A stretch of DNA of 64,000 nucleotides from positions 65,625 to 129,624 of the forward strand of contig CAYXQC010000002.1 in NCBI GenBank assembly GCA_964467385.1, in the 5' to 3' direction. Position 1 is the first letter of the stretch, and every line of letters starts with the position of its first letter. The position numbers and the translations under genes are program-made. The stretch comes from an uncultured Candidatus Saccharibacteria bacterium. GTDB taxonomy: Bacteria > Patescibacteriota > Minisyncoccia > Phycocordibacterales > CAIZLB01. Shown one piece after another: positions 3,458 to 32,767 of the stretch. The notes beneath the pieces were generated by a model. The model was not told the origin of the DNA and did not search any database. It saw only the letters and a program-made list of their open reading frames with translations.

Positions 3458-4792
3458 CTAAATCAATGTCCTTATCTGATTAAGCTCGTTAATAAGGTTA
3501 GGGTCTGACTTTAATTCATTTTTAATCTTATCGCACGAGTGCATGACAGTGGTATGATCTCGGTTTCCTAGTTTTTGTCCTATAGATGGAAATGAGATAT
3601 TGTAATCCTCTCTTAGGATGTACATAGTGAGTTGGCGTGGTTTAACCACCTCCTGTCTTCGGGTCTTGTTGTAGATACTTTCCTCTTCTATGTTGTAGAA
3701 AGCTGAAACTGCTTTTACTACATCTTTTACAGAGATGGTTTTTTGAGGTTTTGTTGAGTCTTTTGTTTGTTGTTTTACCTCGTTGAGGGTTAAATCTCGG
3801 CCTTTTAGTTGGCTCTGGCAAATAATACCATTCAAAGTACCTTCAAGTTCCCGAATACTACCGTGTACTACTGAGGCGATGTAAAAAGCCACCTCTGGTT
3901 GAAGGTTGAAATTGTTCTGTTGTGCCTTTGTCTGAAGGATTGCAATCTTTGACTCGGTATCGAGAGGTGAAATGTCGATAATCATACCCGCGAGGAATCG
4001 TGATTTTAGGCGATCCTCGAGGTTTTGGAGGTAGTTCGGGTGAACATCTGATGAAAAGACAATCTGCTTGTTGCTATCATACATGTAGTTGAAAAGGTGG
4101 AAGAGTTCCTCTTGGGTTTTCTCTTTATCGGACATGAACTGAATATCGTCGATAATAAGGACATCGTATTTTCGGTACTTTTCCTTAAAGTTGTTTACTT
4201 TATTGGTCTGAACAGCGTTCACATAATCAACTGTAAAACGTTCTGAAGTCACATAGTGAATACGTTTCTCTTTGTGATGAGTCTTAATACTATTCCCTAT
4301 TGCCTGCATGAGGTGAGTTTTACCTAAACCAGTGTTTCCATAGAAGAAAAGGGGGTTATAGGCAACTGGCTTTTTGATAATCGCCTGTGAAGCAGCGTAG
4401 GCAAGCTCGTTAAAAGGGCCAACAACAAAGGTTTCGAAGGTGTATCGAGGGTTAAGGTTGTCTTCTGGGTTAATATAGAGCGAATTGAGAGGAAGCTCTT
4501 TGGTAGAAGTTTGGATTTCTGTAATATGTTCTTCCTTCTTTTTGTGTGTAGGTGCAATAATATATTCGATAGCGCGAATGCTCTCTACAGTGGCTCTAAG
4601 GTACTCCAAAATCTGCTTGTGAAATCGTTTTACGATCCAGTCTTTTACAAAAGTGTTAGGCATAGCGAGATATACTGTGCCTGAATCTATTTTTGAGATG
4701 TAGATATCCTTAAACCAAGTGGAAAAATTAGCCTTAGTAACTTGTAGTTCTATCTTTACTAAAACTGAATCCCATAAGGTTTTGCTATCCAT
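3458..4792 (-). CDS. dnaA: Chromosomal replication initiator DnaA
   Basis: AAA+ Walker A GNTGLGKTHL, Walker B LIIDDIQF, and a C-terminal DNA-binding helix (GQKLGNRDHTTVMHSCDKI). Confidence 0.95.
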   Translation of the reverse strand: MDSKTLWDSVLVKIELQVTKANFSTWFKDIYISKIDSGTVYLAMPNTFVKDWIVKRFHKQILEYLRATVESIRAIEYIIAPTHKKKEEHITEIQTSTKELPLNSLYINPEDNLNPRYTFETFVVGPFNELAYAASQAIIKKPVAYNPLFFYGNTGLGKTHLMQAIGNSIKTHHKEKRIHYVTSERFTVDYVNAVQTNKVNNFKEKYRKYDVLIIDDIQFMSDKEKTQEELFHLFNYMYDSNKQIVFSSDVHPNYLQNLEDRLKSRFLAGMIIDISPLDTESKIAILQTKAQQNNFNLQPEVAFYIASVVHGSIRELEGTLNGIICQSQLKGRDLTLNEVKQQTKDSTKPQKTISVKDVVKAVSAFYNIEEESIYNKTRRQEVVKPRQLTMYILREDYNISFPSIGQKLGNRDHTTVMHSCDKIKNELKSDPNLINELNQIRTLI

Positions 4793-5416: not shown

Positions 5417-6139
5417 ATGTTTCATACACTTTTTTACGATCCAATTTACAACCTGCTTGTTTATGTGATTGATCTTATTCCTGGTGGAGACGTTGGTCTT
5501 GCTACTATTATAGTTACTTGTGTTGTGAAGATTATACTCTTCCCTCTCTCAAAGAAGGCTACCAAGACACAGCTTAAGATGAAACAACTCGAACCCGAGC
5601 TTGCAAAGATTAAAGAACAATATGGAAGTAACCGAGAAGAGTTTGGACGAAAGACACTTGAGTTTTATAGAAAGAATGAACTCAATCCTTTTGCAAGTTT
5701 CTTTCTGATTCTTATTCAGTTGCCAATCATTATTGCACTTGCCTATATTTTTATTAGTGGAGGACTCCCTCTTATTAAAACAGAACTCCTTTACTCGTTT
5801 ATAACTGTTCCGTCTACTGTTTCAACTCTCTTTTTTGGATTAGTTGATGTAAGTAAAACAAGCCTAATTCTTAGTATTCTTGCAGGACTCGCACAGTTTG
5901 TGCAGATTCGATACTCAGTGCCTGCGTATACACCCCCGGCTGAAGGTTCTAAAAATAAAAGCACACTTGGTGATGATTTTGCGCGAAGTATGAATGTGCA
6001 AATGCGGTATGTGATGCCTATCTTTATGTTTGTAGTGTGTCTCACAGTATCAGGTGCGGTTGCGCTTTACTGGATTACTGGAAGTTTGTTTGCTATTGGG
6101 CAGGAGTTGTATTTCAGGAATACAATAAAGAAAGCTTAG
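5417..6139 (+). CDS. yidC: Membrane protein insertase YidC/Oxa1 (short form)
   Basis: 240 aa with multiple TM segments and the conserved YidC core (KKATKTQLKMKQLEPELAKIKEQYG, NPFASFF). Synteny with rnpA supports the call. Confidence 0.85.
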   Translation: MFHTLFYDPIYNLLVYVIDLIPGGDVGLATIIVTCVVKIILFPLSKKATKTQLKMKQLEPELAKIKEQYGSNREEFGRKTLEFYRKNELNPFASFFLILIQLPIIIALAYIFISGGLPLIKTELLYSFITVPSTVSTLFFGLVDVSKTSLILSILAGLAQFVQIRYSVPAYTPPAEGSKNKSTLGDDFARSMNVQMRYVMPIFMFVVCLTVSGAVALYWITGSLFAIGQELYFRNTIKKA

Positions 6140-6167: not shown

Positions 6168-7643
6168 TTATCTAGTGGTAGAACTTGCTACAGAAGATGA
6201 AGCGCGGTTCAAAGTATCAAGCGGGTTTGTCGTGTCTAAAATAACAGGTTCAACAAGTTGAAGTCCCCAGAGTGTGAGGTCAATTTTGTTTGTGAATACA
6301 AGGTAGTCATCAGTTGGGCTAATACTCAAGTTCGTCGCATCGATTACTTGGCCGCTCTCTTTTTGGATAGACATAACAAGTCGAGTTTCACCTGTGTCTA
6401 GATTGATTTTCCAAACTGAATCTGCAAAGTTGATCTGGCCCTGATACCAAATGTCGGGATATGTTCCGAATGCAATGTTGTCAGGAAGCGCACAGTAGAG
6501 TGTGTTTTTTTCTTGCTTTGCCCAAACACATTTTTCAGGAAGTGTTTTGAATGGGAATGTGAAAACTGATCGGCTTTTTGTATCAAGTAGATAAAGTCCA
6601 ATGCTACCCTGTTCACTTTTACTGAATACTACTTTTGTAGTGTCTGGAGAAGTGAGTGTTGTAAGACCGTAAATATTTCCAAGTACTCTTATGACTTCTT
6701 GTGTTGTTGGATTGAGATTGTACAAAAATCCGGGAGCAAAACCTGATGCTTTTGTAGTGAGTGTAATTGTTTTTGCGCTTGGCCATGAAGAAATCCATTC
6801 GCGATATGGTGTGTCGTAAATTCCTACAATAGATCCGCCATCAACTTTTGAAAGAAGACCTCTTGTACCGGTGTTTGAAATTGAAAAGAGTTGTGTTTTG
6901 TCTGGGGAGACAGAAACGCTTGTAAGATCGATTGGTAAATCTTTAAGGTCCAGTGAAGTACTTAACCCTTCAGATGCTTCAGTTGTTGTTGATTTTATAA
7001 TAGAAGCATATCGAGTACTTATCATATCAGAATCCCCTACTAAACCACGTAAAATAAGGTCATTTCCTTGGTTTACAAAAAGTGCCTCATAGATTTTTGG
7101 TTCAGTTTGGTTTGATATTTTTTCTTTGGCCAGTGTATTTGTAGCTGTATCAAAGATGTGGCCAGTACCACGTTCGATGTATCGGATTACTTGTCTATAA
7201 CCAATAATTTTTGGTTTTTTTGTAGGTGCTGTGTTCTTTTTTACAGTTCCATTTGATGTACTTGCAGTAAGGTTTATTGATGAATCTGCAGGCTCTACGT
7301 TTTTTACAACCGGAATTACTTCGTATACAGGGATGGTAATAAAGTCAGATCCAGCTGTTGGAGACTCACTAATCAGTCTAAGTTTTGGAATTTGTGGAGT
7401 TGTTGTAGCTGTTTTTGTTGGTAAATTTAGATCACCATCTGTGCTATTTTGTGAACTTGTGTTCGTGTCGATATCAGGATTGTATCCGCCGAAATTTGTT
7501 CGATTTTTTGCAACGTTTGTAGTTGGAGTGGATGTCTTGTTTTTTGTGTAAAAATAAAAGCCAACAAGTCCACCTATAACAATACTTGTTATTAGAATGA
7601 TAATGATGGCAATTATTCGGTTTCTCGAAGAAGAGTCTCGCAT
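6168..7643 (-). CDS. Membrane-anchored TolB/PD40-like beta-propeller protein (last gene of the T4SS-like operon)
   Basis: An N-terminal TM helix is followed by a Thr-rich linker and repeated SPD(K/T/D)-hydrophobic PD40-like blades (VSVSPDKTQLF, LTSPDTTKVVF, LSISPTDDYLVF). Confidence 0.45.
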   Translation of the reverse strand: MRDSSSRNRIIAIIIILITSIVIGGLVGFYFYTKNKTSTPTTNVAKNRTNFGGYNPDIDTNTSSQNSTDGDLNLPTKTATTTPQIPKLRLISESPTAGSDFITIPVYEVIPVVKNVEPADSSINLTASTSNGTVKKNTAPTKKPKIIGYRQVIRYIERGTGHIFDTATNTLAKEKISNQTEPKIYEALFVNQGNDLILRGLVGDSDMISTRYASIIKSTTTEASEGLSTSLDLKDLPIDLTSVSVSPDKTQLFSISNTGTRGLLSKVDGGSIVGIYDTPYREWISSWPSAKTITLTTKASGFAPGFLYNLNPTTQEVIRVLGNIYGLTTLTSPDTTKVVFSKSEQGSIGLYLLDTKSRSVFTFPFKTLPEKCVWAKQEKNTLYCALPDNIAFGTYPDIWYQGQINFADSVWKINLDTGETRLVMSIQKESGQVIDATNLSISPTDDYLVFTNKIDLTLWGLQLVEPVILDTTNPLDTLNRASSSVASSTTR

Positions 7644-7685
7644 ATGGAGTTTATATGCGTATAGTATAGCAGAAAAAAGTTTTAA

Positions 7686-9155
7686 TTAACGAATGGTTGA
7701 CCAATATGCCGCTAGCCCTTTCCATGTATTACCAACTTTACAGCTAATACATTTATCTTTTAGTAGTTGTCGTTCCATAATTTTGATTCCAACTTCAATA
7801 TTTTTGTATGGATCTTTCAGATCGTTTTCGGAATATCCTCGAGCACGTGCTTCTGCATCCACTTGTGAAAGCTGTAAAAGACCTACGGAGTTGTAGTTAA
7901 GTGGTGCAGGTTCACGAAAAACAAGTCCAGGTTTGAAGTTCGATTCTTTTTTAATAATTCCACCAATAATATTTAACCATCCTCGGAGTGAAACTTGTCC
8001 ATTTGGAAAAAATCTTGCAGCATCGCTTGGTACAATTGAAAGAATTCGAGTCCTGTTTATTTGGTCTGCAGCATACTGCTCCCAGCTTATGTTTGATATA
8101 CCTATTGGTGAGAATGATCCACCTCCTACTATACCCCCGTTAGAATAACCAGGGATACCGTTTGTTGCTCCATTTATAAGATCTTGCGTGTAAGGGTATT
8201 GTTCTGATGGTGTGGGTGTACCCCCTGAAAATTCCACGTCTACTTTTTCAATAGTGCTGTCATATTTTACAGTGTCGATAGCTAGATCACTTCGAAGGAG
8301 GTTCGGATTTACTTGTTGAAGAATAAGATAAGAACCAAGAACAATAAGAAGTCCTTCAATTGCACCCACGATTCTTTTTCTCCCTTCGCTACTTTTACTC
8401 CACGAGTCTGTAGAAACGTACTGGAGACCTCCAACTACTATCATGATTAAAGCGAGTCCTGTTGCGATAGCGATACCTATCTTATAAAGTGTTTGTAGGT
8501 ATCCACTGAGTCCCCCTCCTTTGACATCCACTTCTCCATTCGGAAAAAAAGTTCCGATTGGTGCAAGAAGTTTATATGTACCACCTGCGCCAGGGCTGAA
8601 AGTGATACCTCTTTGGTTTGCACCTACACTATCTGTGAATACTCCTGTTTTTGCTTGCTGTGCTACCTCATCGTGTCCACTAGCAAATACTGCATTGTTT
8701 TCTGCCTGTTTTGTGTCACCTACTGCTGCGTAAGCCTTTGATAGGCTATCTTTGTATTTTGCATCCGCATCCATTAGTTTCCCTAGTCTTTCATTTGTTG
8801 TCCCTTTAAAGCCGAAAACATTACTGATTGTTTCTCCAAATCCGACGCTACTATTCTGTTGTTTTACAAGTGCCCTATCTACACCAGCCTTTAGGACAGC
8901 TTCTTTTTGAGTCTGTGCAACTTCAGTGCTCATACCATTTTTGATTGCAGAATCATATACATTCTGCCCATCACGCGCAGCTTGGCTCATATCACCTGCT
9001 GCTTCAGCGTTAGGTGAAGCATGAGACCTTTGAAAAAAGTCTATTCCAGCATCATAGCTCTCGGCGAAAACTAGACCAAGGGTACTTATTGAGAAAAAAG
9101 AAAACCCAAACAAAAGGTAGATAATTAAAACCGCACTCAAACACTTTTTGAACAT
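7686..9155 (-). CDS. Secreted/membrane-anchored cell-wall hydrolase with a C-terminal lytic transglycosylase (SLT) domain. VirB1/PrgK-like
   Basis: A signal peptide is followed by an internal TM helix (IGIAIATGLALIMIVVGGL). The C-terminus carries ES...GLLQLS...Y SLT-like motifs (KKESNFKPG, VGLLQLSQVD). Confidence 0.55.
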   Translation of the reverse strand: MFKKCLSAVLIIYLLFGFSFFSISTLGLVFAESYDAGIDFFQRSHASPNAEAAGDMSQAARDGQNVYDSAIKNGMSTEVAQTQKEAVLKAGVDRALVKQQNSSVGFGETISNVFGFKGTTNERLGKLMDADAKYKDSLSKAYAAVGDTKQAENNAVFASGHDEVAQQAKTGVFTDSVGANQRGITFSPGAGGTYKLLAPIGTFFPNGEVDVKGGGLSGYLQTLYKIGIAIATGLALIMIVVGGLQYVSTDSWSKSSEGRKRIVGAIEGLLIVLGSYLILQQVNPNLLRSDLAIDTVKYDSTIEKVDVEFSGGTPTPSEQYPYTQDLINGATNGIPGYSNGGIVGGGSFSPIGISNISWEQYAADQINRTRILSIVPSDAARFFPNGQVSLRGWLNIIGGIIKKESNFKPGLVFREPAPLNYNSVGLLQLSQVDAEARARGYSENDLKDPYKNIEVGIKIMERQLLKDKCISCKVGNTWKGLAAYWSTIR

Positions 9156-9179
9156 ACGCTAATTATACACGAATTTTTA

Positions 9180-10358
9180 TTATTGATTTGCTGAATATAC
9201 TAGATTCAGTCCAGAAATTGATTTTTGGAGAATGTGCGTTGGATTTTTTACAATCACTCCAATGCTAACAAGCGCATCTTTAAGTTCTTTTCTTTTGAAT
9301 ACTACAGAATCTTGATAGTCTGGGAGCGCAATTTGGTTGTTGCCAAGTGACCATTCGTATTGCAGGTCGCTCGATCGGCTTGGTGTACTAAAGAAATAAG
9401 GGAAAGCCGAAATCTCCACGTCTCTACCTTTCACTGCATAGTCGTTTCGAAGCGCTTTGTTAAAGATGATTCCGTAGAGTGGATTATTTTCATATAGAAG
9501 TGTTTGTGGGAAAACGTGAGAAATAGTAAATCCATTTAAACCCTTATAATTAGGGTCTTTTGCTGCATATACCTCGGCTTGGATAAGGGTTGGTTTTAGG
9601 AGAATTGAACCTGTGAAATTATAAGAATTTTTACCAAAACCTGAATTGTCACCGTCAACTTCCCTATCAATTTTCCAGTTATAAATAATATTGCTCGAAT
9701 CAACCCTTTTTCCGTTCATTACAATGTTCGGCATTGCGACAAATGTAACATTTGATTCTGGTGTAAAAAGTGCCTTACCTTTGTAAAAAGGTGGTGTATA
9801 TGTATTTGCCTGCCAGAGAATATCAACGTCTACTGGTGCGAATGTGAATGTTTTTACAATATCAGGTGCATTTTTTGGAGAAATAGTTACTCGTACTATA
9901 TTTGTCGTACCAGCTTCTCCTGCTACAAATGAAAATGTTTTCTTCCCAATACCTCGAAGGCTGGTTTTTCCATCAACTGTCCATGTGATAAGTTCTTTGT
10001 TGAGATCGATTCCGTATGTCTCTACAGAAATATCCACAGTTTCTCCAGGTTGTGGAATTTCAGGACTTACTTCTGCATATACTTCTTCTTTGATCTGAGG
10101 TAGTTTTCCAGTGAAAGGGATACTGTTGTCACTGACTGTTCCATCGGCATTGTATATAGGATCACTTGTGTTTGATCCGTTACCATACGCATCTGCTTGT
10201 GCATCGTTGTTATAAAAAACAGGAGTTACTTGAGCGGAAACCACAGGGGATATTGCAACCTGAAGAGATAATAAAGAAAAAATAAATAAAAACACAACCA
10301 CACTTGATATTTTTCTGATATTTTTTTTAGACCAACTAAGCGTTTTCTGCATACTCAA
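9180..10358 (-). CDS. Secreted hypothetical protein (T4SS-like operon)
   Basis: 392 aa with N-terminal signal peptide/TM (ISSVVVFLFIFSLLSLQVAISPVVSAQV). No recognisable catalytic motif. Confidence 0.45.
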   Translation of the reverse strand: MSMQKTLSWSKKNIRKISSVVVFLFIFSLLSLQVAISPVVSAQVTPVFYNNDAQADAYGNGSNTSDPIYNADGTVSDNSIPFTGKLPQIKEEVYAEVSPEIPQPGETVDISVETYGIDLNKELITWTVDGKTSLRGIGKKTFSFVAGEAGTTNIVRVTISPKNAPDIVKTFTFAPVDVDILWQANTYTPPFYKGKALFTPESNVTFVAMPNIVMNGKRVDSSNIIYNWKIDREVDGDNSGFGKNSYNFTGSILLKPTLIQAEVYAAKDPNYKGLNGFTISHVFPQTLLYENNPLYGIIFNKALRNDYAVKGRDVEISAFPYFFSTPSRSSDLQYEWSLGNNQIALPDYQDSVVFKRKELKDALVSIGVIVKNPTHILQKSISGLNLVYSANQ

Positions 10359-10387
10359 TACAGTATATCAAACATTGTGTACAAGCA

Positions 10388-10915
10388 TTATGCGTAAGGT
10401 GTTCCTGAATGAATAATCTTGTTTATTTTAGGGTGTTGTATTAGATAAATCGATCGAGTGTAGAATGGTATGATGTTTATATAAGGTATCATTTCACCAA
10501 AAATAAATTTGAATGCCTTCCAGAATTCAGCATCTGTGACGCCTCGTCTAATACACATAATATAGAGATTAAATACAGCAGCAGGAACTATTATGCAAAA
10601 GTTAATGACCCAGCCAACTATTGGGACAAGACCTACTAGAAACCCTGCAATATCCCAAAATACCGCCATTCCATATACTGCAGTAAAATTTTTACTTTGA
10701 ATATTTGTACTAGACCCATCATTCCCTCGAGACTTATTTATCATCCTCATATTTGGGTTCGGAGACCAGGTTTTTGGTCTTTTTCCAGCACGCAATGCAA
10801 ATTGTTGCTGTTTTTCGGTAATGGTCTGAAGTCTCTCTTCTTCTAGGTAAGTATTTTCACCATCCAGATTTGGTGCTGGCCTAGGATTGTTTGGTCTTAT
10901 AGATAGCGTATCCAT
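10388..10915 (-). CDS. Small two-TM membrane protein (T4SS-like operon)
   Basis: 175 aa with a polar N-terminal half and two C-terminal TM helices (AVFWDIAGFLVGLVPIVGWVINFCIIVPAAVFNLYIM). It lies directly downstream of the VirB4 gene. Confidence 0.45.
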   Translation of the reverse strand: MDTLSIRPNNPRPAPNLDGENTYLEEERLQTITEKQQQFALRAGKRPKTWSPNPNMRMINKSRGNDGSSTNIQSKNFTAVYGMAVFWDIAGFLVGLVPIVGWVINFCIIVPAAVFNLYIMCIRRGVTDAEFWKAFKFIFGEMIPYINIIPFYTRSIYLIQHPKINKIIHSGTPYA

Positions 10916-10933
10916 CGTATCTCTATACTATCA

Positions 10934-12928
10934 TTAATTTCCGTTCGGTCGTGTTTTTGTGAGGCCGGAAGGTGTTACATTTGCTGATGGTGTGCCGATG
11001 TTATTTATACTTATATCGCTAATGCTCACCTTCTCTTCTCCTGTAGCCCCTAGTGCACTATTCATAAAATTTGTGCTGGCACTAATGTTCTGTGAAAACT
11101 CTGTTTCTCCTCCAAGACCTCGATTGGCAAGATCTGCCTTGGCTTTTTTCATATTAATCACTTGTGACGGTGCTGATGTAATGATCTGATCTTCTGTGTA
11201 TGATGCGATTACTTTAATAGCTACATGTTTTAGTCCGGCAAAGAAAATTCCCTCTCCTACATCTGACTCGAGCAAGAGATATTTTTCCTCATCGGTAAGA
11301 TTGAAGGTTTTTTGTACTACGTCGATAGATGACGGTGACTGCTTCAACAAAAGCTGAATAGAAGAGTTTGTGATAATTGGTAAGCCGTATGGTGATTTGA
11401 GGAAGTCCTCAACGTCTTGTGTAATTGTGGCTACACCGAGGTAGTATTTTCGGCCTCGTTTTGCCAAACTGTAGAGGAATGAAGCTGTATCTTCGGATTT
11501 CATCATCCACCATGCCTCGTCGATAACCATAAGTCTTTTTTTCAACTCTTTTCGGATCTGATTCCAGATGAAGTGCATTACGATGTACATCGCTACAGGT
11601 TTCAATTCATCTTCCATGTCTCGAAGTGAGAATACTACGAACTTTTTGTTGATATCAACGTTTGATGGTCTGTTGATGAATCCAGCCCAAGAACCTTTTG
11701 TATATTTTGTAAGTCTCTGTACAAGTGACTCCCCTCCTTCCATACCTGCAAGCACAAGCTCGAAGTCGGACATAAGTGGCGGTTCAACAGCTGCAAAGTT
11801 TGATTCGGGTGTAATATCCTTGAGTGCGTAGGTTTCAGTAATTGCTCGGTCAATAATCGCATCTTCTTCAGGGCTAAGACCTCCGAGCATGATTCGGAAA
11901 AGCCCTACGAGGTTGATGATGTTTGATCGAAGTACATCGGCGTTTGACTCATCTTCTCGTGCTGCTGGGAGATCGAATGGGTTGATATGGTGTTCGGAGC
12001 TGAGGGATATATTGAAAAATCGCCCACCGGTTGTTTCGGCAAGATATTCATATTCTCGTTCAGGGTCGAGTACGATTACGTCAGTATCGAACATCATTGA
12101 ACGCAAGATCTCGAGTTTTGTTGTATATGATTTACCAGAACCTGACTTTGCAAATGTGATTGAGTTGTAGTTTTCAAGTGAGAATCGGTCAAAAAGAATA
12201 AGTGAAGAGTTGTGTCGGTTAATTCCGTACAAAATACCCTTGTCTGATGTGAGGTCGAATGAAATGAATGGAAAAACGCTTGAAAGAGGTGCAGAGTTGA
12301 GCTTTGAGTGAATATTGAGCTGGTCATCTGCGATAGGAAGAACACTCTTATAGCCTTGTTCTTGCTGGAAAAGGGCTGGCTTTAAGTATACAAGGCTGGC
12401 TTCGAGGATTGATTTTACTTCTGACTCGATCTTATCAAGTTCACTTTCATTGTCACCATAGATAGATATGTAAAGTCCTACATCGAAAATCTTTTCCTGT
12501 GCCTGTTGAAGGTTATCTCGTAGTGCTTCAAGGTCTTGGTACGCGGTGTCAAGAACAGGGTCTCGTACAAGTCCCTTTTCTTCTCGAAGGTGAATCTGGC
12601 TCTGCACTTCTGCTACTTTTTTCTGGAATGTTCGAAGTACTGATGCTGTATCGATTGGGTGCACGAAGATGGAAATATCGAAAATCTTGTCGAGGTTGAT
12701 GATTGGGGCAAACCAGCTCGCTGAAAGGAATCGAGGATATGAAATTACAAAGAAAGTTCGGACAAGTTTGTCGCCAAGATTTAGTGCACGAGGGCTAATT
12801 TTGAGCGCAGAAGGGGCAATAATGTCTTGGAGTTCCAAAACACCAGACTGGTAAATCTCCTGCGGCAAAATAGACGCAATCGGGTCAGCCTTCTTTTGTG
12901 TTGGTTTTAAAAAGTCGAAGATTCCCAT
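10934..12928 (-). CDS. virB4: Type IV secretion ATPase VirB4/TrbE/PrgJ family
   Basis: 664 aa. The N-terminal domain matches Gram-positive VirB4 (VRTFFVISYPRFL...DISIFVHPID). Walker A is FAKSGSGKSYTT and Walker B is VIDEAWWMM. Confidence 0.85.
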   Translation of the reverse strand: MGIFDFLKPTQKKADPIASILPQEIYQSGVLELQDIIAPSALKISPRALNLGDKLVRTFFVISYPRFLSASWFAPIINLDKIFDISIFVHPIDTASVLRTFQKKVAEVQSQIHLREEKGLVRDPVLDTAYQDLEALRDNLQQAQEKIFDVGLYISIYGDNESELDKIESEVKSILEASLVYLKPALFQQEQGYKSVLPIADDQLNIHSKLNSAPLSSVFPFISFDLTSDKGILYGINRHNSSLILFDRFSLENYNSITFAKSGSGKSYTTKLEILRSMMFDTDVIVLDPEREYEYLAETTGGRFFNISLSSEHHINPFDLPAAREDESNADVLRSNIINLVGLFRIMLGGLSPEEDAIIDRAITETYALKDITPESNFAAVEPPLMSDFELVLAGMEGGESLVQRLTKYTKGSWAGFINRPSNVDINKKFVVFSLRDMEDELKPVAMYIVMHFIWNQIRKELKKRLMVIDEAWWMMKSEDTASFLYSLAKRGRKYYLGVATITQDVEDFLKSPYGLPIITNSSIQLLLKQSPSSIDVVQKTFNLTDEEKYLLLESDVGEGIFFAGLKHVAIKVIASYTEDQIITSAPSQVINMKKAKADLANRGLGGETEFSQNISASTNFMNSALGATGEEKVSISDISINNIGTPSANVTPSGLTKTRPNGN

Positions 12929-12943
12929 GGTGGTGCGTTATTG

Positions 12944-13591
12944 TTACTGTTGATTAAGGTGAATAGGTTTCTCGATATCGCCTGGATTGAATGTTTTGTA
13001 GAAAAGTTCGATCAATTCTTCTGTTCCTAGGTGAGCGATTCGGATTCCACATCGGACAAGTCCTTGTTCTACCACTTCCATTCGCTGCTGAAGTTGGCTC
13101 TTTGTCTCTTCGAAGGTTGCAGTGTCTTCAGCAGCTTTGGTCTTTTTGTCTTTGTTACCAAGAAAAGTGTTTTTAAGTGCGTTTGTGCCTCCGATAACTG
13201 GCGCTGAGTATGGGATAACAATAAAGAAGCTCTTGGTCATAATGCTTGTTGACTCAGTGAAACTTCGGATGAATTCGATATATTCTCGAGTCTGCATTTT
13301 CATCAAATCCCCTACTTGATCTTTAAGTCGCTCCTCTAAAAGGGCTATGTAAGGTCGTATATCAAGTCTTCGTGACTGTGTATAGATCTGAACTGAGAAG
13401 TTTATTGAGTTTAGAAAATTTTGAAATTGAAAAATGATAGATTGCTGCTCCTCGCCTGATTTGAGGGCGAAGTTCAATGATGATGCAAGAAGAATTGCAC
13501 GAAGTGAACCATCTTTGAGTACAATAACACCGTCTCTAATTTCTTTAATAGGAACAAATGCTTGTGTAGGTCTTGCATCGATGGTCGCCAT
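12944..13591 (-). CDS. Stand-alone VirB4 N-terminal-domain-like protein
   Basis: 215 aa. The N-terminus FVPIKEIRDGVIVLKDGSLRAILLASSLNFALKSGEEQQSII...LNSINFSVQIYTQSRRLD follows the pattern of the VirB4 N-terminal (CagE_TrbE_VirB) domain. No ATPase motifs are present. Confidence 0.5.
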   Translation of the reverse strand: MATIDARPTQAFVPIKEIRDGVIVLKDGSLRAILLASSLNFALKSGEEQQSIIFQFQNFLNSINFSVQIYTQSRRLDIRPYIALLEERLKDQVGDLMKMQTREYIEFIRSFTESTSIMTKSFFIVIPYSAPVIGGTNALKNTFLGNKDKKTKAAEDTATFEETKSQLQQRMEVVEQGLVRCGIRIAHLGTEELIELFYKTFNPGDIEKPIHLNQQ

Positions 13592-13696
13592 AGATGCAAT
13601 TATAGCAGATATTTTTTACACATGCTTTTTCTGTGGGTTGTTTGTGTTTTAAAAATGGAGGCGCACCATATCTTTAGAAAAATTTGAGCGAAAAAT

Positions 13697-14164
13697 CTAA
13701 AAAGGTCTCTGTATTGGCGCATCTTTTCTACTCTCAAGTTTTCCAGATTCACGAGAATAAATAGTTTCGTTGATATCAAGGCTCCATGCGAGATCTTTTA
13801 GATGGCTCTCAGATAGTTTTGGTACGGTCACAGAGGTTTTTGTTAGTTGAAGTGCCTCACTGATACTTTTAGGTGCGATTTTTTTATCAACTTTTTTCCA
13901 AATGTAGAGTTTCTGTGTAAGTGCATAGTTAAAGGCTGACTCGATCATCTCTATAAAAGGACGATTATTTGGTCGATACATAGAAAGAAGACCTGCAAAT
14001 AGTGCACAAGGAATCATAACTATGATCGCCCAGAAAAACGGAAGCATTCGGTACGCAATGAAGCAGAGTCCTGCCCCACCAGCTATGTACACGAACTGTT
14101 TAAACGTAAATGGGCCAAAAATCTTATCTTCTACCTCGATGAATTGTGGAACTTGATAGCGCAT
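13697..14164 (-). CDS. PrgI/VirB3-like small membrane protein
   Basis: 155 aa. A cytoplasmic N-terminus (VPQFIEVEDKIFGPFTFKQFVYIAGG) is followed by a TM hairpin, the typical PrgI/VirB3 architecture. Its position upstream of VirB4 fits. Confidence 0.5.
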   Translation of the reverse strand: MRYQVPQFIEVEDKIFGPFTFKQFVYIAGGAGLCFIAYRMLPFFWAIIVMIPCALFAGLLSMYRPNNRPFIEMIESAFNYALTQKLYIWKKVDKKIAPKSISEALQLTKTSVTVPKLSESHLKDLAWSLDINETIYSRESGKLESRKDAPIQRPF

Positions 14165-14206
14165 CGTTTATTGTGCATTGTGCGCAAGTGTTGCGCGAAA
14201 TTGTGA

Positions 14207-14533
14207 TTATATTGTACCACCCTCTTGAATCATTCGCATATTTTCTTGAATTGGTCGGAGGATTTTTCTGTTTACATCCATGACGAGCTCACCTGCTCTT
14301 GTTGGATCCAATCGGAGTTCCTTCTCTACTTTCTCGAGCATGCTCCCTCCTTCAAAGGTACCAAATACAACCTCGGCAATTATTGATTCTAAAGTAGCAG
14401 CTTGATCAATGTGCAGTTTGTAAACAGTATGAATTTCTTTTAACACCTGATCATAGTTGAATTTTCTAATGGCTTGTTTTGCATCTTCTGGGAGTTTTTC
14501 AAACCCTTCCCTTGATTCTATTGAGTTTGTCAT
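14207..14533 (-). CDS. Hypothetical cytoplasmic protein (T4SS-like operon)
   Basis: 108 aa with no TM and no recognisable motif. Confidence 0.4.
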   Translation of the reverse strand: MTNSIESREGFEKLPEDAKQAIRKFNYDQVLKEIHTVYKLHIDQAATLESIIAEVVFGTFEGGSMLEKVEKELRLDPTRAGELVMDVNRKILRPIQENMRMIQEGGTI

Positions 14534-14571
14534 GGGTATAGTATACAGGAAACTGTGGAAAGCTGGACTAT

Positions 14572-15315
14572 CTAGAGTACTGGTTCTCTGTAAGGATCAG
14601 TTTTTTTAGGTACAAACACCTCTTTTGGAATAGAAGCTGAAGGGGTTGTGAGTTTTGCATCTAGTTTCTGAACTATGTTTTCAGCTGGGTTTGTGTGTGG
14701 TTTGTTTGAGAAACCTATCTCAAGGGCTGGTTTGATCGAGGTGCTGATATTGTTTGTTGTGTTTTGTGCGATGGATGCTGTTGGTGTTGTAGGGTTTTGT
14801 ATGCCCTGTGCTGGTTTATTTCCAGGGATTGTTAGATTTGATGGGGTTGGGTTTTCGATTTCGCTTAGGATGTCGTGGTGAGAGAGTGGTTCGGGGGTGG
14901 TTTTTTCTTGTGCCATGTCAATATCTCTTTTGCTACTGTACGCCGCGTTTGGCTGATCAGGATCCGTTACAGGGTACTGAATTTCTCGAAGTAATTTATC
15001 AGGTAAACAAGTTGAATAAAAACCTTCAATAACAGGATCAGTTTCCTCCTCGTTTAGGTTGAGGGTTTCTATTATCGAACTAATAAAATCTTCTTCAGAT
15101 ATGAGTCCTAGTAAAAACTGTGACGTTTTTCCTCGAATAATATCGATTAACAGTTGTTTGTCTTTTGTATTTGGTCTACATCGATCAATGAAAGCCAAAA
15201 AGTTAATATTTGAATATATTTTTAAGATAAATTCTTGGATGTTTTTTGAGCTCCTCTCTAAGTTTTTTTGGTATATTTGTGTGTCGATGATATTCATTTG
15301 TGTTTTTTGAAACAA
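14572..15315 (-). CDS. Hypothetical protein with a Pro/Thr-rich C-terminal tail (T4SS-like operon)
   Basis: 247 aa: a globular N-terminal half and a low-complexity P/T/N-rich C-terminal half. Confidence 0.4.
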   Translation of the reverse strand: MFQKTQMNIIDTQIYQKNLERSSKNIQEFILKIYSNINFLAFIDRCRPNTKDKQLLIDIIRGKTSQFLLGLISEEDFISSIIETLNLNEEETDPVIEGFYSTCLPDKLLREIQYPVTDPDQPNAAYSSKRDIDMAQEKTTPEPLSHHDILSEIENPTPSNLTIPGNKPAQGIQNPTTPTASIAQNTTNNISTSIKPALEIGFSNKPHTNPAENIVQKLDAKLTTPSASIPKEVFVPKKTDPYREPVL

Positions 15316-15325
15316 GGTCCAGTGG

Positions 15326-17353
15326 CTACTTATCTTTACTTTCAGATCTTTCTATTCTGTCCAATTTATCAACAGTGTCTTCGTAGCCTTTAATTATAGC
15401 CTGCTGATCACTTTTCATTCCACGAAGTGAACTTTCAAGTGAGTTTAATGCATTCATCTCAGCAGCTTGATGCTTAGGATCGAGACCTACCATTCTTTTA
15501 TGAGTGTCAGCGATTTGTTCATCGATTTTGCTTATACGCTCTTGTGCCTTTTCATAGTTTTCTTTTGAGAATTTACCACCGGCAATACCTTTATCTTTAT
15601 TTGCATCCTGAATAAGAGCTTCAAGAGCCTCCTTGTTTTTTGGTGCACTAGATTTTTTCTTGGCTTTTGATAAGGCGGTTTTACTTGCATAGCTAAAAGT
15701 CGTACCTTTCAAATATCTTTTCTCAGCTTCTTTACCCGCAGGACCTTTTAATGCACCCTCAATCAAATTACCTCTCTCTGAGTACATTTTTGTTTTATCT
15801 TTCACTACATCATTAAAGCTTTTATTGTTACCATCTGGTCCAATTTTGAGATCTTTCAGTTTCTTACCTCTCTGCATAAGTGCAGCTGCGCCCAAACCAC
15901 CGAAAGGTAATCTCGCAGCTGCACCTGCCAAAGCTTTATTTTCAGATAAGAATGTACCAAGTCCACCAGCTGTATTTCTGGTTATACTTAAAGCAGCATT
16001 TGCTCCACTGAAAGTCATACCCAGGCTCTTTGCCCAACCTTTCCCTCTTTTTTCCCATTCCTTCGCACCATAAGCTCCAAAACTTGATGCAATTATTAGG
16101 CAACCAAGCATCATGGCAATTAAAATGGCGAATGTCATAACAGCGCCAATCATGTTTGTGCTTCCTGCGAACATGTCTATAAATGTTCCTGTGTATTTCT
16201 TTCCATCGATGGTTACACCACTAAATGTTCCACTTGGGTTTTTTCCAATCATACTAATTACTAGATATAACAAGGCCATGTATGCTGGTGCAAAAAGCAA
16301 ATTATTTTTCAGTTTTGACCACCATTTACCTGACTCGCTACCAACAGCAGGAAGTATGTCACCGAGAACAGCCACAGGTGAAAGGATCATTAAGAAAATA
16401 AGTTCGACTGTGCGCACTAACATCATTAATGCTCCTGCAAAAAAGACAAGCGCGGTGATGAGTACTAGAACAATTCCGCCAATACTTGCAATCAATAGGT
16501 TTGTTGAATTAAGTCCAAGTTTAGAAGCCTCACCTATTCCGAGTGATGATGCACCGCCGTTAGCTGTTTCACCAGCTGCTTGACCTCCGATACTAAAAAT
16601 TTTATCCATTCCTAATGCCTTCGTGAACGCTGCTGATATTCCCGAGTCTAGATCATTTGCATTTGCGCCTCCGGTTGTGTTCTGTGCTACGTTTATTATT
16701 TTGTGATAAAACTGAAGCGCCATAATATTTGAAGCATCGATTGCTACTTGCGTAAAAAACAGACTAAAGTTTATAAGCATCGCTCCTGCTACAACTTTGA
16801 TAAGCTTTTGCTTCGAATTAAAACCTCCATGATTGATTATGATACTGATTCCTATATACAAAATTACAAAAATAAAACAGAGATTGGCAATATCTCGGAA
16901 GGTTGACCAGCCAAGTGCAACGATAGGGATATCGTTCACAACACTTGCCATATTTAAAGAGTAATTGATAACAGCATTGAAAAAGATGGCAGCAACCCAT
17001 AAAACCCAAGAACATAGTCCGAGAATAGAGAAGGTCACTATGGAAATACAAGCAGGAATATCAAAACCCTCGTTCCATTTAAAACATGAGATTTCACTAT
17101 TTGAAGCACTTGCGGTTTGTTGCTGTTGCTGAGAATTAGCTGCATCATTGGGTCCCTTTCCTGCAACGGTTGCCTGTTTTGTAGCGTACGCAGCATTTGA
17201 ATTTGCTGATGCATTAGGATCTCTCGTTCGTGCTTGCCCAGTGGGTGCCGCTGTCTCAGCCTCAACCTTCTCAACAGGAAAAAAACCGCCCGCACAAATC
17301 GCAAAAAGCGTAACAAGAAGAATTATTTTCCGATAAAAATAACTTCCAGTCAT
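15326..17353 (-). CDS. Polytopic membrane protein, VirB6/TrbL-like candidate, with a long Lys-rich coiled-coil cytoplasmic tail
   Basis: 675 aa. A signal peptide is followed by a Gln/Ala/Asn-rich extracytoplasmic segment, at least 6 TM helices and a ~230-aa Lys/Glu-rich C-terminus. It is the large membrane component adjacent to VirB4, as in MPF systems. Confidence 0.5.
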   Translation of the reverse strand: MTGSYFYRKIILLVTLFAICAGGFFPVEKVEAETAAPTGQARTRDPNASANSNAAYATKQATVAGKGPNDAANSQQQQQTASASNSEISCFKWNEGFDIPACISIVTFSILGLCSWVLWVAAIFFNAVINYSLNMASVVNDIPIVALGWSTFRDIANLCFIFVILYIGISIIINHGGFNSKQKLIKVVAGAMLINFSLFFTQVAIDASNIMALQFYHKIINVAQNTTGGANANDLDSGISAAFTKALGMDKIFSIGGQAAGETANGGASSLGIGEASKLGLNSTNLLIASIGGIVLVLITALVFFAGALMMLVRTVELIFLMILSPVAVLGDILPAVGSESGKWWSKLKNNLLFAPAYMALLYLVISMIGKNPSGTFSGVTIDGKKYTGTFIDMFAGSTNMIGAVMTFAILIAMMLGCLIIASSFGAYGAKEWEKRGKGWAKSLGMTFSGANAALSITRNTAGGLGTFLSENKALAGAAARLPFGGLGAAALMQRGKKLKDLKIGPDGNNKSFNDVVKDKTKMYSERGNLIEGALKGPAGKEAEKRYLKGTTFSYASKTALSKAKKKSSAPKNKEALEALIQDANKDKGIAGGKFSKENYEKAQERISKIDEQIADTHKRMVGLDPKHQAAEMNALNSLESSLRGMKSDQQAIIKGYEDTVDKLDRIERSESKDK

Positions 17354-17440
17354 TTATTTTCTAAATTATACACCATGCGCATAATAAATAGCTATATGTT
17401 TCCCACAATTAGCCTTATTTCTTAAAATATTTTTACAATC

Positions 17441-18697
17441 TTATTGTTGTGCCTTTTCGAGTACCGTATTGAGTGCTTTTTTGATAAGAGAGTTTACAAG
17501 TTTTGTGATGATCTGATCAATTTTCTCAGCTGTAACAAGTCTCTGCTTTGGAATATTGAGAGTTTGTTCAAGAGATGACATGATCAAAGAACCTGGAGTA
17601 TATGTTTTACAGCTCCGAGTGTCACCTTTTTTGGCTGCAACATTGTCCTCACATCTTTTGAAGTTTAACCAGCCACTGTTGTTGTTAAGTTCGAATTTGG
17701 CAGTCTCTTGCTTGCCTGTGGCTTGTGCGGCGATGTACTTTCCTGCGTTTAGATATGTTCCCCAAACATTGTTTTGGTTGAATCGTGTGTTGTTCCAATC
17801 GCTCCAAAATCCTGCATTTCCTCCTGTTCCACCTGCCTGTTGCTGTGGTGACATGCTACATGCGATCTGTGCTGCCTGACCGGGATTTCCATACTGACTA
17901 TTGCTATAGGATTCTGATAGAGCTATCGCTACATCGGTCCGGTACTGAGGACACACATTTGAGCCGTTATTGTTGTAGGCGATACCAGAGATATATTGGC
18001 TCTGAATCTTGTCAGCGAGCCCTCTAAAGAAGTTCTCAGGGTTTTCTATGAAGGCAGGGTTACCTTTAAAGCCTGTTTTTGCCCACGCAATAGTTGCATT
18101 TGCTACATATTCGATAATTCCGTTCACGATACAATAGGCAATACCGTTAAAGCTGGCGCCGAAAGGCACACCGAGGATCTGCTGAAAAGCGTTCACTGAA
18201 GTGTCAGCTTCGGTTGCCGCTCTAGTTGAAGCCAAGTTGTCATTTTTGGCCTCTGAAACGATAGGTACATACTTCTGGGATTCGAGAGCTGAGCCTGCGG
18301 CCTTGCTTACGAGGGATTTGAGGCCTGAAGTTAGGGCTTGTCCGAGAAGTCCGCTTGCTGAACATCCGACCGCATCAGATGCAGCAGCTCCGGCTCCACC
18401 CGCTGTGCTACCACTTGACCCTGATGTGTCACTGTTATATGCCTCAGCCTGAGCATCGACTGTGCCTCCGAACCCTGCATTTGCCTGTGCAGCACCTCCT
18501 CCTCCGGCTGATCCTGTTGCAGTTGCTTGAACTTGCGATCCTGCCAGCGCTTGACCTAGAGTCTGTTCTCCTGGTGTTGTACCTGTATATGGAGTGTTTA
18601 CACTAGATGCATAACTAGTTACTGGTATAGAAAAGAGTACAAGAGCACTTACTATTGTAGATGAAATGAGTCTATTTAGATTCGGATAATTTATCAT
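17441..18697 (-). CDS. Secreted Gly/Ala/Ser-rich protein (T4SS-like operon)
   Basis: 418 aa. A signal peptide (IVSALVLFSIPVTSYASS) is followed by a long low-complexity G/A/S stretch and a globular C-terminal domain. Confidence 0.45.
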   Translation of the reverse strand: MINYPNLNRLISSTIVSALVLFSIPVTSYASSVNTPYTGTTPGEQTLGQALAGSQVQATATGSAGGGGAAQANAGFGGTVDAQAEAYNSDTSGSSGSTAGGAGAAASDAVGCSASGLLGQALTSGLKSLVSKAAGSALESQKYVPIVSEAKNDNLASTRAATEADTSVNAFQQILGVPFGASFNGIAYCIVNGIIEYVANATIAWAKTGFKGNPAFIENPENFFRGLADKIQSQYISGIAYNNNGSNVCPQYRTDVAIALSESYSNSQYGNPGQAAQIACSMSPQQQAGGTGGNAGFWSDWNNTRFNQNNVWGTYLNAGKYIAAQATGKQETAKFELNNNSGWLNFKRCEDNVAAKKGDTRSCKTYTPGSLIMSSLEQTLNIPKQRLVTAEKIDQIITKLVNSLIKKALNTVLEKAQQ

Positions 18698-18767
18698 GAT
18701 TACAATTCTCTTTAACTTACTTAACCTTAATTGAAATTTGATTCAAAACACTGGCTGTATCGAATCT

Positions 18768-19742
18768 CTAATTCAAGCTTATGGTTGTCGTTCCTGTTCT
18801 CCAGAAACTACCAGGCTCATTACTGTCGTAGATTATACCATTGTCGATTATGTACTGGTTGATTTGTGTGTATATATCTACTTGGCGAATCACAGCTTCA
18901 CGTACTACTTGTAGCCCGAGGAGTGCTTTCACTGGATCTTTTACTTGTCCACCGATCAAAACAAAGGCGTCAGTCTGTTTTAGGTAGTCATTCGCGAGCT
19001 GTAGGTGCGCTGCCGCAACAGGGCTCGGTACTCGAAGTTGCATTAGACCTTCCCCTATGCGTTTATAGATAGGAATCATTTCGTTTACATCACTTTCGTA
19101 TTTAACAGGATTTGCTCTAAGTGGCGCTGAAGCATCTACGATTACCTTTGCGAATGCATTTCCATAGGCTTTAATCTCGGCTGCGCTTGTTGGTGAAAAT
19201 ATATTCAAGAAAGCCAGGCTGTACTTGTTTTTATTGATATCACTAATATCTAGGTAAGAAAAACTGTTTATAAGGTCATCCTCGTTAAACTCGGTGCCAT
19301 TAATATCGTAATCCAGGTATGTGTTGAAGATATCTTTGCTAAACCGATCACTTACATTGTCTTTAGGGGATGGGTCAAAAGGGTTGGTCGAACTCGCCAA
19401 AACCCCTAAAGTCTGTAGTTTTGCCTGCTGGAGTGCCTCGAGAAGCTTTTGATTTGCTTCTCTTTCCTCTGTGTTTTGTCCAGCAACTGCTTGAATGCCG
19501 GCTATTTCTATGTCGTGAGCTTTTCTAAGTGAGATTTTATTTGTAAGAAGAATTCCGATAACTGCAAGACAAACTGCGCCCACAATAAGAACTCGTTTGT
19601 GGGGAAGAAAGTCTTTACCCTGTGCCTCACTGGTTTGGGTCACTGGCTTTCCTGTAAGCGAAATTTCGTCATACGAGGTTTCTGGTATTCTATTCGAAGA
19701 GGTGCGATTTTTTTGCGAAAAATTTCCAGAAAAGTAAATCAT
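18768..19742 (-). CDS. Bitopic membrane protein (first gene of the T4SS-like operon)
   Basis: 324 aa. A cytoplasmic N-terminus is followed by one TM helix (VLIVGAVCLAVIGILL) and a ~250-aa external domain. Confidence 0.45.
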   Translation of the reverse strand: MIYFSGNFSQKNRTSSNRIPETSYDEISLTGKPVTQTSEAQGKDFLPHKRVLIVGAVCLAVIGILLTNKISLRKAHDIEIAGIQAVAGQNTEEREANQKLLEALQQAKLQTLGVLASSTNPFDPSPKDNVSDRFSKDIFNTYLDYDINGTEFNEDDLINSFSYLDISDINKNKYSLAFLNIFSPTSAAEIKAYGNAFAKVIVDASAPLRANPVKYESDVNEMIPIYKRIGEGLMQLRVPSPVAAAHLQLANDYLKQTDAFVLIGGQVKDPVKALLGLQVVREAVIRQVDIYTQINQYIIDNGIIYDSNEPGSFWRTGTTTISLN

Positions 19743-19784: not shown

Positions 19785-20690
19785 TCATTTGAAGGTGTTG
19801 AGAGTTTTGAAAATAGAAATATACTGCTCCAAAGATAAGTCTTCTGCGCGAACATTTGAATCTAGGTTTTGTTTAATAAAAATTTGTTCCAATCGCATGG
19901 CGTCAATACCCTGAATATTCTTTAAATTTTGTATCAACTTTTTGCGTTTATGTGCAAAGGCATAGTGGAGCATGTCAAAAAAAGCATCCTCATATGCTTG
20001 TTCAATTTTTCTACCATCTATAGTTGCCACTGTTGAATTAAAAATATCAACGGAGATAATTGCCGAATCGACATTTGGCGCAGGAACAAAAGCTCCCCGA
20101 GGAACAATGCTTATGATTTTTGGCACACCATATAATTTAATACTAAGCGACAGTAAATTTTCTTTCATTCTACCTTTCTCATCTTTTGCGACTATACGCT
20201 TTGCTACTTCTTTTTGCACGAGCATAACCACCTTCTTCGGCAGATTTTTTTGAGAAAAAATTGATCTAAAAATCAGACCTGTTATGTAATACGGGATGTT
20301 TGCTATTACTTTATCAAAATTTATAGCAACCTTACTTGATGAATTTTTGAGAATTTCTAAGGCATCAGCGTGAATAAGTTTGAAAATTCCAGCTGTAATG
20401 TCTTGTGCAAATTTTTCACTCAATATCTGAATTAATCTATCATCTTTTTCAATCGCAATAAGTCGAGTATTTTTTCTGGTTCGGACAATATCTAAGAGTC
20501 TCTCGGTAAGTGCACCCATACCAGGTCCAATTTCTAAGATAGTTTCGTTATCACCGATTTCCCCTGATTCTGCCATCTCTCGAAGTGCCTTTTCAGATTT
20601 TAAGAAATTTTGCCCGAGGGATTTTTTTGCAAATTTTGACTCGCGAATCCTCATGTCGCCGTCACGTATATCGTTCAGGTTACTTAGCAT
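19785..20690 (-). CDS. rsmA: 16S rRNA (adenine1518/1519-N6) dimethyltransferase
   Basis: KsgA signature GQNFL plus SAM-binding motif LEIGPGMGALT. Confidence 0.9.
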   Translation of the reverse strand: MLSNLNDIRDGDMRIRESKFAKKSLGQNFLKSEKALREMAESGEIGDNETILEIGPGMGALTERLLDIVRTRKNTRLIAIEKDDRLIQILSEKFAQDITAGIFKLIHADALEILKNSSSKVAINFDKVIANIPYYITGLIFRSIFSQKNLPKKVVMLVQKEVAKRIVAKDEKGRMKENLLSLSIKLYGVPKIISIVPRGAFVPAPNVDSAIISVDIFNSTVATIDGRKIEQAYEDAFFDMLHYAFAHKRKKLIQNLKNIQGIDAMRLEQIFIKQNLDSNVRAEDLSLEQYISIFKTLNTFK

Positions 20691-32695: not shown

Positions 32696-32767
32696 GCACC
32701 TATGGTGAAATGGATATCACAACGGTCTTCGGAACCGTTATTCTAGGTTCGAATCCTGGTGGGTGCA
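32696..32767 (+). tRNA. tRNA-Arg (anticodon TCG)
   Basis: Hand-folded cloverleaf: 7-bp acceptor GCACCTA/TGGGTGC, anticodon stem ACGGT/ACCGT with loop CTTCGGA, T-loop TTCGAAT. Confidence 0.75.

Follow-up and report, generated by a model that had tools for sequence, protein, structure and literature searches.

Two adjacent genes in a chromosomal Patescibacteria type IV secretion cluster probably encode one VirB4 ATPase divided by gene fission

Introduction

In the MPF_FATA transfer systems of the staphylococcal conjugative plasmids pGO1 and pSK41, a small gene in the VirB3 position is followed by the gene of a soluble protein, TrsD/TraD, and then by the gene of the ATPase TrsE/TraE; on pSK41, trsD encodes 227 aa and is separated by a 14-nt gap from the gene of the 672-aa TrsE. 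Homologues of TrsD are the most abundant component of the type IV secretion systems (T4SSs) of Patescibacteria, where 2,272 of them were recorded, 1,664 adjoining virB4 (Quinonero-Coronel et al. 2025, PMC12102498). The TrsD homologue, whose function is unassigned, is essential in Ca. Southlakia epibionticum, and the T4SS clusters of Patescibacteria lie near dnaA, rnpA, and ksgA (PMC12102498). T4SS genes are also essential for epibiotic growth (Wang et al. 2023, PMC10633639). Here we describe such a locus in a 64,000-nt stretch of DNA (hereafter the window) from an uncultured Candidatus Saccharibacteria bacterium (assembly GCA_964467385.1, contig CAYXQC010000002.1, positions 65,625–129,624), in which a 215-aa open reading frame (ORF A) is followed by the gene of a 664-aa VirB4-type ATPase (ORF B). 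We concluded, with a probability of roughly 0.85, that the two ORFs are the parts of one VirB4 split by an ancient gene fission.

Full-length VirB4 proteins, represented by R388 TrwK, Agrobacterium tumefaciens VirB4, and the models TIGR00929 and NF045971, are single polypeptides of about 790–820 residues. In R388, VirB3 wraps the N-terminal domain (NTD) of VirB4 (residues 15–400), through which the central/outside VirB4 dimer forms and which also takes part in the hexamer interface (PMC9259494). ORF A and ORF B together match these proteins in length (215 + 664 aa, including a C-terminal tail of ORF B), domain order, and fold, but in the window they are separate polypeptides, and the score of ORF A by itself is far under the VirB4 cutoffs. 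The likeness to pGO1 and pSK41 extends to gene order and size (a VirB3-position gene, a soluble protein of ~215–227 aa, an ATPase of ~665–672 aa) and to the spacer (14 nt on pSK41, 15 nt in the window), whereas the setting differs: the window locus is chromosomal and origin-proximal in a Patescibacterium, not plasmid-borne. ORF A belongs to the Patescibacteria TrsD homologues described in PMC12102498, adjoining virB4 and a PrgI/VirB3 gene near dnaA, rnpA/yidC, and ksgA. The VirB3–VirB4 fusions reported in the same work likewise show that the VirB3/VirB4-NTD/ATPase module tolerates fusion and fission at domain boundaries, but they represent the opposite direction, since the PrgI/VirB3 gene of the window is separate and VirB4 itself is cut.

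Results and discussion

ORF A is a genuine gene placed 15 nt before ORF B

The elements of the locus on which the analysis centered are the following.

12944–13591, minus strand: ORF A, ATG start, 215 aa; TrsD/"TraC-like" protein (PF26593 by precomputed annotation), soluble, without Walker motifs.
10934–12928, minus strand: ORF B, 664 aa, the next ORF downstream of ORF A; probably the remainder of VirB4.
12929–12946, minus strand: ORF A–ORF B junction, TAA CAA TAA CGC ACC ACC, followed by the ATG of ORF B.

An earlier note on this DNA, made from the sequence alone, had described ORF A as a duplicated, ATPase-less paralogue of the VirB4 N-domain standing beside a full-length VirB4 whose own N-domain was complete, and had called this arrangement unusual. 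Its basic description was accurate: the translation of ORF A includes the quoted peptide (...FVPIKEIRDGVIVLKDGSLRAILLASSLNFALKSGEEQQ...SRRLD...), and both the ORF coordinates and the junction sequence agreed with a 215-aa product without Walker motifs encoded 15 bp before the VirB4 gene. The junction reads CAG TAA CAA TAA CGC ACC ACC ATG, where two TAA codons stand in frame; ORF A and ORF B share one frame, and the spacer between the stop of the former and the ATG of the latter is exactly 15 nt. Neither a Walker A motif nor a hydrophobic or transmembrane segment was found in ORF A.

A protein identical to ORF A is recorded on three independent contigs, and its homologues, with 60–86% identity and a length of 210–220 aa, number in the thousands. 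Comparison with the nearest relatives gave a ratio of nonsynonymous to synonymous substitution rates (dN/dS) of 0.03–0.05, with synonymous sites saturated. Because of the identical protein on record, the abundance of homologues, and this low dN/dS, ORF A is regarded as a real gene under strong purifying selection.

ORF A resembles the beginning of VirB4

The similarity of ORF A to the N-terminal part of VirB4 proposed in the earlier note was confirmed by four NCBIfam models of the VirB4/TrbE group, namely VirB4_plasma (positions 103–233 of 894, E = 3e-10), TIGR00929 VirB4_CagE (positions 5–166 of 792, E = 5e-6), the CD1110-family VirB4 NF045971 (positions 2–113 of 752, E = 2.5e-4), and TrbE (positions 53–201, E = 5.6e-4), as well as by the stand-alone TrsD/TraD model NF041427 (27.1 bits, E = 3.1e-6). 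All NCBIfam matches of ORF A were far under the family cutoffs; those to the VirB4 models reached 19–38 bits against cutoffs of 325–643. By its sequence score, ORF A is a distant relative of the narrow staphylococcal TrsD/TraD subfamily NF041427 and not a member of it. In precomputed annotation, the protein identical to ORF A and all its close homologues are assigned to PF26593 ("TraC-like"), a family that appears at NCBI under the name "TraC family protein". A paper on the TraC/TraD of pELF plasmids was considered and set aside, as these proteins are unrelated.

Neither single-sequence nor profile searches of ORF A against the chains of the PDB gave a match, and TrwK was found by fold comparison only. 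For this purpose an AlphaFold2 (AF2) model was used, which was built from 29 homologues and had a predicted local distance difference test score (pLDDT) of 73. The top 14 PDB fold matches of this model were all R388 TrwK/VirB4 (E = 2e-3 to 3e-2, probability 0.87–1.0, template modeling score (TM) 0.30–0.42), and those beyond the top 14 were weak and unrelated. The profile and structure searches of the 215-aa protein that the earlier note had proposed as a check did therefore find similarity to the VirB4 N-terminus, and by family models and predicted fold, ORF A is identified as a stand-alone, ATPase-less homologue of the first ~200 residues of the VirB4 N-terminal region.

ORF B is short by the same part

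ORF B was recognized as a VirB4-type ATPase. It matched the Pfam families P-loop_TraG (E = 4e-27), AAA_10, and DUF87, and the C-terminal domain (CTD) of VirB4 in PDB entry 4AG5 (E = 1.7e-40). The NCBIfam alignments, however, did not cover whole models: ORF B alone exceeded the CD1110-family cutoff (367 vs. 325 bits, E = 1.8e-109), yet it corresponded to positions 179–733 of 752 only, and its matches to VirB4_plasma and TIGR00929 ran over positions 285–893 and 280–724, respectively. Residues 255–551 aligned with TrwK 446–735. Walker A occupies residues 260–267, so that 260 residues precede it in ORF B as against about 450–457 in TrwK and in the single-chain Patescibacteria protein P0201 described below. 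Compared with full-length VirB4 (TrwK and the fused forms), ORF B is thus ~190–200 N-terminal residues short, and the claim that this gene encodes a full-length VirB4 with a complete N-domain of its own did not hold. The parts of the protein can be listed as follows.

ORF B, residues ~1–250: second half of the VirB4 N-terminal domain, beginning at a conserved Met-Gly; the first ~27 residues are not present in fused forms.
ORF B, following part: C-terminal Walker A/B ATPase domain.
ORF B, last ~70 residues (10934–11140, minus strand): Ser/Asn/Thr-rich low-complexity tail past the ATPase domain.

The tail is missing in the fused relatives and in pSK41 TrsE, and the alignments stop at about residue 593 of ORF B.

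The two ORFs are complementary and are joined in sister lineages

ORF A and ORF B occupy consecutive, non-overlapping segments of every full-length VirB4 model. No significant similarity was detected between them: the best BLASTP value was E = 0.42, and hhalign comparison of the ORF A family with the first 250 residues of the ORF B family gave a probability of 0.3% with narrow and diverse profiles alike, the best non-significant match joining A 62–100 to B 78–116 (P = 0.19).

An exhaustive profile search with ORF A collected 2886 cluster representatives at E ≤ 0.001. Among the best 150 of these, 149 were stand-alone proteins (146–443 aa) and one, P0201 (797 aa), was fused. Its residues 5–214 aligned with ORF A (43% identity, E = 4e-53) and residues 225–791 with ORF B 28–593 (57% identity), that is, the two parts are collinear with the genes of the window and are joined by a connector of ~10 residues. 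The gene of P0201 has the following position.

L086, 544–2937: P0201 gene, open throughout under the standard code, next after a PrgI gene and near dnaA.

A search with P0201 itself showed that this form is not solitary, as ~117 of the best 120 relatives had 775–807 aa and contained PF26593 and P-loop domains; the fused relatives (P0271–P0389) are by name Candidatus Colwellbacteria, Parcubacteria, or Patescibacteria. When the fused family was modeled with AF2 (pLDDT 66), the model matched full-length R388 TrwK with E = 3e-25 and TM 0.53/0.53, and the match ran end to end (~870 aligned columns for the 799-residue chain). Compared with the NTD-only TrwK chain 8rtd_h, a TMt of 0.59 was obtained.

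The complementary mapping, the collinearity of the fused forms, and the fit of the fused model to full-length TrwK led us to conclude that ORF A and ORF B most probably represent one VirB4 divided by an ancient fission. Neither ORF alone has the architecture of the VirB4 family, a single chain with full NTD and Walker A/B CTD; only the two together cover it.

The single-chain VirB4 of ~790 aa is common in Colwellbacteria-type Parcubacteria, and the Paceibacteria-type lineages, the window included, have the two-gene form; consequently, both states coexist in Patescibacteria. A damaged relative of the fused gene was also observed (L089, 1282–3470, 88% identity), in which residues 1–89 and those from 193 onward lie in different frames and ~100 residues are missing, representing either a pseudogene or an assembly error of the metagenome-assembled genome (MAG). 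The 600-aa P0289 is a truncated gene call from this locus; it was considered as a sign of recent fission and rejected because of the internal deletion and frameshift of its source.

The split is conserved in relatives and recurs on Firmicutes plasmids

ORF A relatives were encoded in 341 genome stretches, of which the best 80, each from a different species, were inspected. The split was found in all of them: the ORF A homologue stops and the ATPase gene follows, and no fused gene was seen (0/80). The ATPase gene comprised 599–703 aa in the 73 loci where it was complete. The spacer between the two genes varied from 1 to 601 nt with a median of 8 nt (≤20 nt in 55/77), and the frame relation varied as well. 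Frameshift, sequencing error, and readthrough were excluded on the grounds that the split occurs in 80/80 species with different spacers and frames, and the shared frame in the window is thus a coincidence. The closest relatives of ORF A were found in Paceibacteria/Parcubacteria MAGs. In the comparison of orthologous loci, which the earlier note had suggested in search of the same extra ORF or of a fused longer VirB4, the separate ORF was present in 80/80; the fused form, seen in 0/80, turned up in the Colwellbacteria-type lineages.

Spacers longer than ~20 nt often hold a TGnTATAAT-like extended −10 box ~8–15 nt before the ATG of the ATPase gene (L004, L011, L014, L022, L023, L040, L045, L052, L062, L065, L076, and others), which the 15-nt spacer of the window does not contain. 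To judge from these boxes, the ATPase gene of those species might have a promoter of its own and a near-leaderless mRNA. In four species, 420–600 bp of unrelated DNA is located between the TrsD-like and ATPase genes (L012, 6651–7242; L013, 6651–7253; L018, 6624–7135; L070, 6636–7058), and the insert of L070 includes a small ORF. These inserts indicate that the pair tolerates physical separation.

Outside the Patescibacteria, a tblastn search against plasmids gave 52 records with relatives of ORF A, most of them megaplasmids of Firmicutes. In the five plasmids inspected (C. perfringens pJFP838A, C. botulinum pRSJ20_1, a plasmid of Pontibacillus, B. thuringiensis BTB_502p, and Peribacillus pOM18), a PrgI-like gene was followed by the gene of a 227–328-aa "hypothetical / TraC family" protein and then of a 620–661-aa VirB4/DUF87 ATPase. 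ORF B residues 3–573 aligned with residues 2–617 of pSK41 TrsE (E = 5e-32); the alignment starts at the first residues of both proteins, so that the window and pSK41 have the VirB4 breakpoint in common. The arrangement can therefore hardly be called unusual, being present in 80/80 species, on Firmicutes plasmids including pSK41, and in the published Patescibacteria clusters (PMC12102498).

Weighing of alternative explanations

Several observations weigh against regarding ORF A as the missing piece of ORF B, or at least against its link to the staphylococcal prototype. ORF A fails the curated cutoff of 200 bits of NF041427, and direct hhalign comparison with pSK41 TrsD gave a collinear but weak match (E = 0.031, probability 1.6%), hence the tie to TrsD is based mainly on position, size, and the breakpoint of the ATPase. 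The confidence of the AF2 models was only moderate (pLDDT 73 and 66), and the TM values to TrwK were modest (0.37–0.53). As for expression, no Shine–Dalgarno sequence is visible in the 15-nt spacer, and the spacers of >400 nt or the −10-like boxes before the ATPase gene in some species mean that tight translational coupling is not universal.

The last point is also relevant to the possibility that ORF A, while derived from the VirB4 N-terminus, has by now become partly independent, acting as an assembly factor present in sub-stoichiometric amounts, as a regulator, or as an adaptor that connects PrgI/VirB3, VirB6, or substrates to the ATPase. It has long been a separate gene in this clade, its identity among homologues (60–86%) is above what is usual for Patescibacteria proteins, the long spacers, inserted ORFs, and −10 boxes of some species would permit separate expression of the two genes, and the TrsD homologues of Gracilibacteria do not adjoin virB4 (PMC12102498). 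We nevertheless consider such a role improbable, given that sister lineages have the two parts on a single chain whose ~10-residue connector enforces a 1:1 stoichiometry and argues for interchangeable states, that the median spacer is 8 nt, and that the model of the fused form is that of an ordinary full-length VirB4.

Far less likely is the explanation of the earlier note, by which ORF A would be an extra, duplicated N-domain next to a complete VirB4, serving as a decoy or an additional VirB3/VirB4 interface adaptor. A loosely similar beta-rich motif does open both ORF A and the N-terminal part of ORF B, the corresponding parts of the fused AF2 model have the same order of 11 secondary-structure elements, and the top hhalign match, though not significant, agrees with that register. 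Against this stand the lack of significant similarity in BLASTP and hhalign (narrow and diverse profiles, P about 0.2), the mapping of the two ORFs to different, consecutive parts of the VirB4 models and of the collinear fused proteins, and the length of ORF B, which lacks ~190 residues; full-length VirB4 holds each module once, so nothing in the locus is extra. Duplication was thus rejected as an explanation of the locus, with the internal resemblance kept as a lead concerning deep evolution. The interface role suggested for ORF A is plausible if the protein is an obligate piece of VirB4 rather than a decoy.

That the split is merely an artefact or a pseudogene, arising from an error in sequencing or assembly or from a nonsense mutation of recent date and perhaps rescued by readthrough, can scarcely be credited. 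The common frame of the two ORFs, separated by only five codons and a stop, would fit such an origin, and the fused-gene relative in L089 is truly damaged; on the other hand, the junction contains two in-frame TAA codons, the split recurs throughout the 80 species with different spacers and frames, the identical protein is known from three independent contigs and is under strong purifying selection, and ORF B has its conserved Met-Gly start with ~27 N-terminal residues of its own. Readthrough or recoding of the stop was dismissed because of the double TAA and the variable frame in relatives, while frameshift, pseudogene formation, and assembly error were rejected in view of the conservation and the dN/dS values. 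Nor is an alternative genetic code needed, as the P0201 gene is open under the standard code.

A possible mode of assembly

The split-VirB4 interpretation involves a third gene, located directly upstream of ORF A.

13697–14164, minus strand: PrgI-family (VirB3-like) small membrane protein, 155 aa, with a hydrophobic segment (Pfam PrgI E = 5.6e-10, TcpE E = 1.2e-3).

This protein is presumed to be the membrane anchor of the split VirB4. The order PrgI, ORF A, ORF B, or PrgI and the fused gene, was also seen in L081–L086. In the window, the three genes would be co-transcribed in this order; a promoter and terminator scan of the stretch from the PrgI gene to ORF B gave counts not above those of shuffled sequence and no site between ORF A and ORF B. 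Translation of ORF B would probably depend on coupling, or on reinitiation past the 15-nt spacer. The ORF A protein may then dock in trans, non-covalently, onto the N-terminal ~250 residues of ORF B, and the two, together with the PrgI/VirB3-like protein, would rebuild the membrane-proximal N-terminal domain of VirB4, which could tether and organize the ATPase hexamer at the membrane channel of the chromosomal T4SS. By analogy with the fused homologues and the R388 structure (PMC9259494), this assembly in trans and the contact with PrgI appear to be the most likely arrangement, and ORF A would be the Patescibacteria counterpart of TrsD/TraD of pGO1/pSK41.

Consequences for annotation and the origin of the breakpoint

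The ORF A family and its position next to virB4 were already known, and ORF A is an ordinary member of it. The text of PMC12102498 does not contain the words "split", "truncated", or "shorter", nor does it say that the partner VirB4 is without this region, and searching it gave no sign of fused forms or of the coexistence of fused and split ones. TrsD is not mentioned in the main text of Guglielmini et al. 2014. The explicit complementarity, the common breakpoint, and the fused sister forms are therefore a modest refinement of published knowledge and do not define a new kind of system. Their practical consequence is that pairs of genes annotated as ~215-aa "hypothetical / TraC family" and ~600–670-aa "DUF87 / ATP-binding" proteins in Patescibacteria and on many Firmicutes plasmids should be read jointly as one VirB4, without taking the short ATPase for a complete protein or the small gene for an extra component. 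In addition, the TrsD-like component of the essential Patescibacteria T4SS gains a concrete role that can be tested, namely that of a detached piece forming the first half of the VirB4 N-terminal domain, because it corresponds exactly to the part missing from the ATPase, is fused to it in sister forms, and shares its breakpoint with pSK41 TrsD/TrsE.

The position of the breakpoint may have a deeper history. In the AF2 model of P0201, residues 14–207 and 239–391 each contain 11 secondary-structure elements in one and the same order (beta-beta-beta-alpha-beta-alpha-alpha-beta-alpha-beta-alpha), and these segments are equivalent to ORF A and to residues ~40–195 of ORF B, respectively. On the basis of this model one could speculate that the VirB4 N-terminal domain arose by an ancient tandem duplication and that the fission took place at the repeat boundary, which would make ORF A a deep paralogue of the N-terminal module of ORF B. 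If this rather doubtful proposal were true, the separable module would let lineages switch between one-chain and two-chain VirB4 and might possibly regulate T4SS assembly.

The surrounding T4SS cluster

The split VirB4 lies in a cluster with the following members and flanks.

~6168–19742, minus strand: T4SS cluster.
2036–3142, 3458–4792, and 5417–6139: dnaN, dnaA, and yidC, flanking the cluster on one side.
19785–20690 and 20719–22773: ksgA and uvrD/pcrA, flanking it on the other side.
7686–9155, minus strand: 489-aa protein with a C-terminal SLT lytic transglycosylase domain (Pfam SLT E = 6e-9), at the distal end of the cluster.
15326–17353, minus strand: 675-aa polytopic membrane protein of the same operon-like run, with multiple hydrophobic segments and a C-terminal tail that is long and charged.
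9180–10915, 14207–15315, and 15326–19742, minus strand: seven ORFs of 392, 175, 108, 247, 675 (the polytopic protein above), 418, and 324 aa, without family match.

The flanking genes place the cluster in an origin-proximal position, in agreement with published observations on Paceibacteria. The features characteristic of the chromosomal T4SSs of Patescibacteria (PMC12102498), that is, virB4, a TrsD-like gene, PrgI, and a location near dnaA, dnaN, and ksgA, were found. Among the cluster ORFs scanned, no relaxase or type IV coupling protein was matched, the window as a whole not having been searched exhaustively. The 675-aa polytopic protein had no significant Pfam or NCBIfam match; by analogy with its position in the Patescibacteria cluster of PMC12102498, it is possibly a VirB6-like channel subunit. 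In the 489-aa protein, a T4SS_pilin-like hydrophobic segment was recognized (Pfam E = 5.8e-3, under the curated cutoff), which is the sole pilin signal, and to judge from these domains, the protein is apparently a VirB1-like enzyme fused to a pilin-like module. The 418-aa ORF is rich in Gly, Ala, and Ser and appears to be secreted.

Rfam families reached the threshold in the window with four tRNA genes only, which are grouped within ~3.2 kb.

32696–35854, plus strand: tRNA genes Arg-TCG, Gly-GCC, Pro-TGG, and Gly-TCC.

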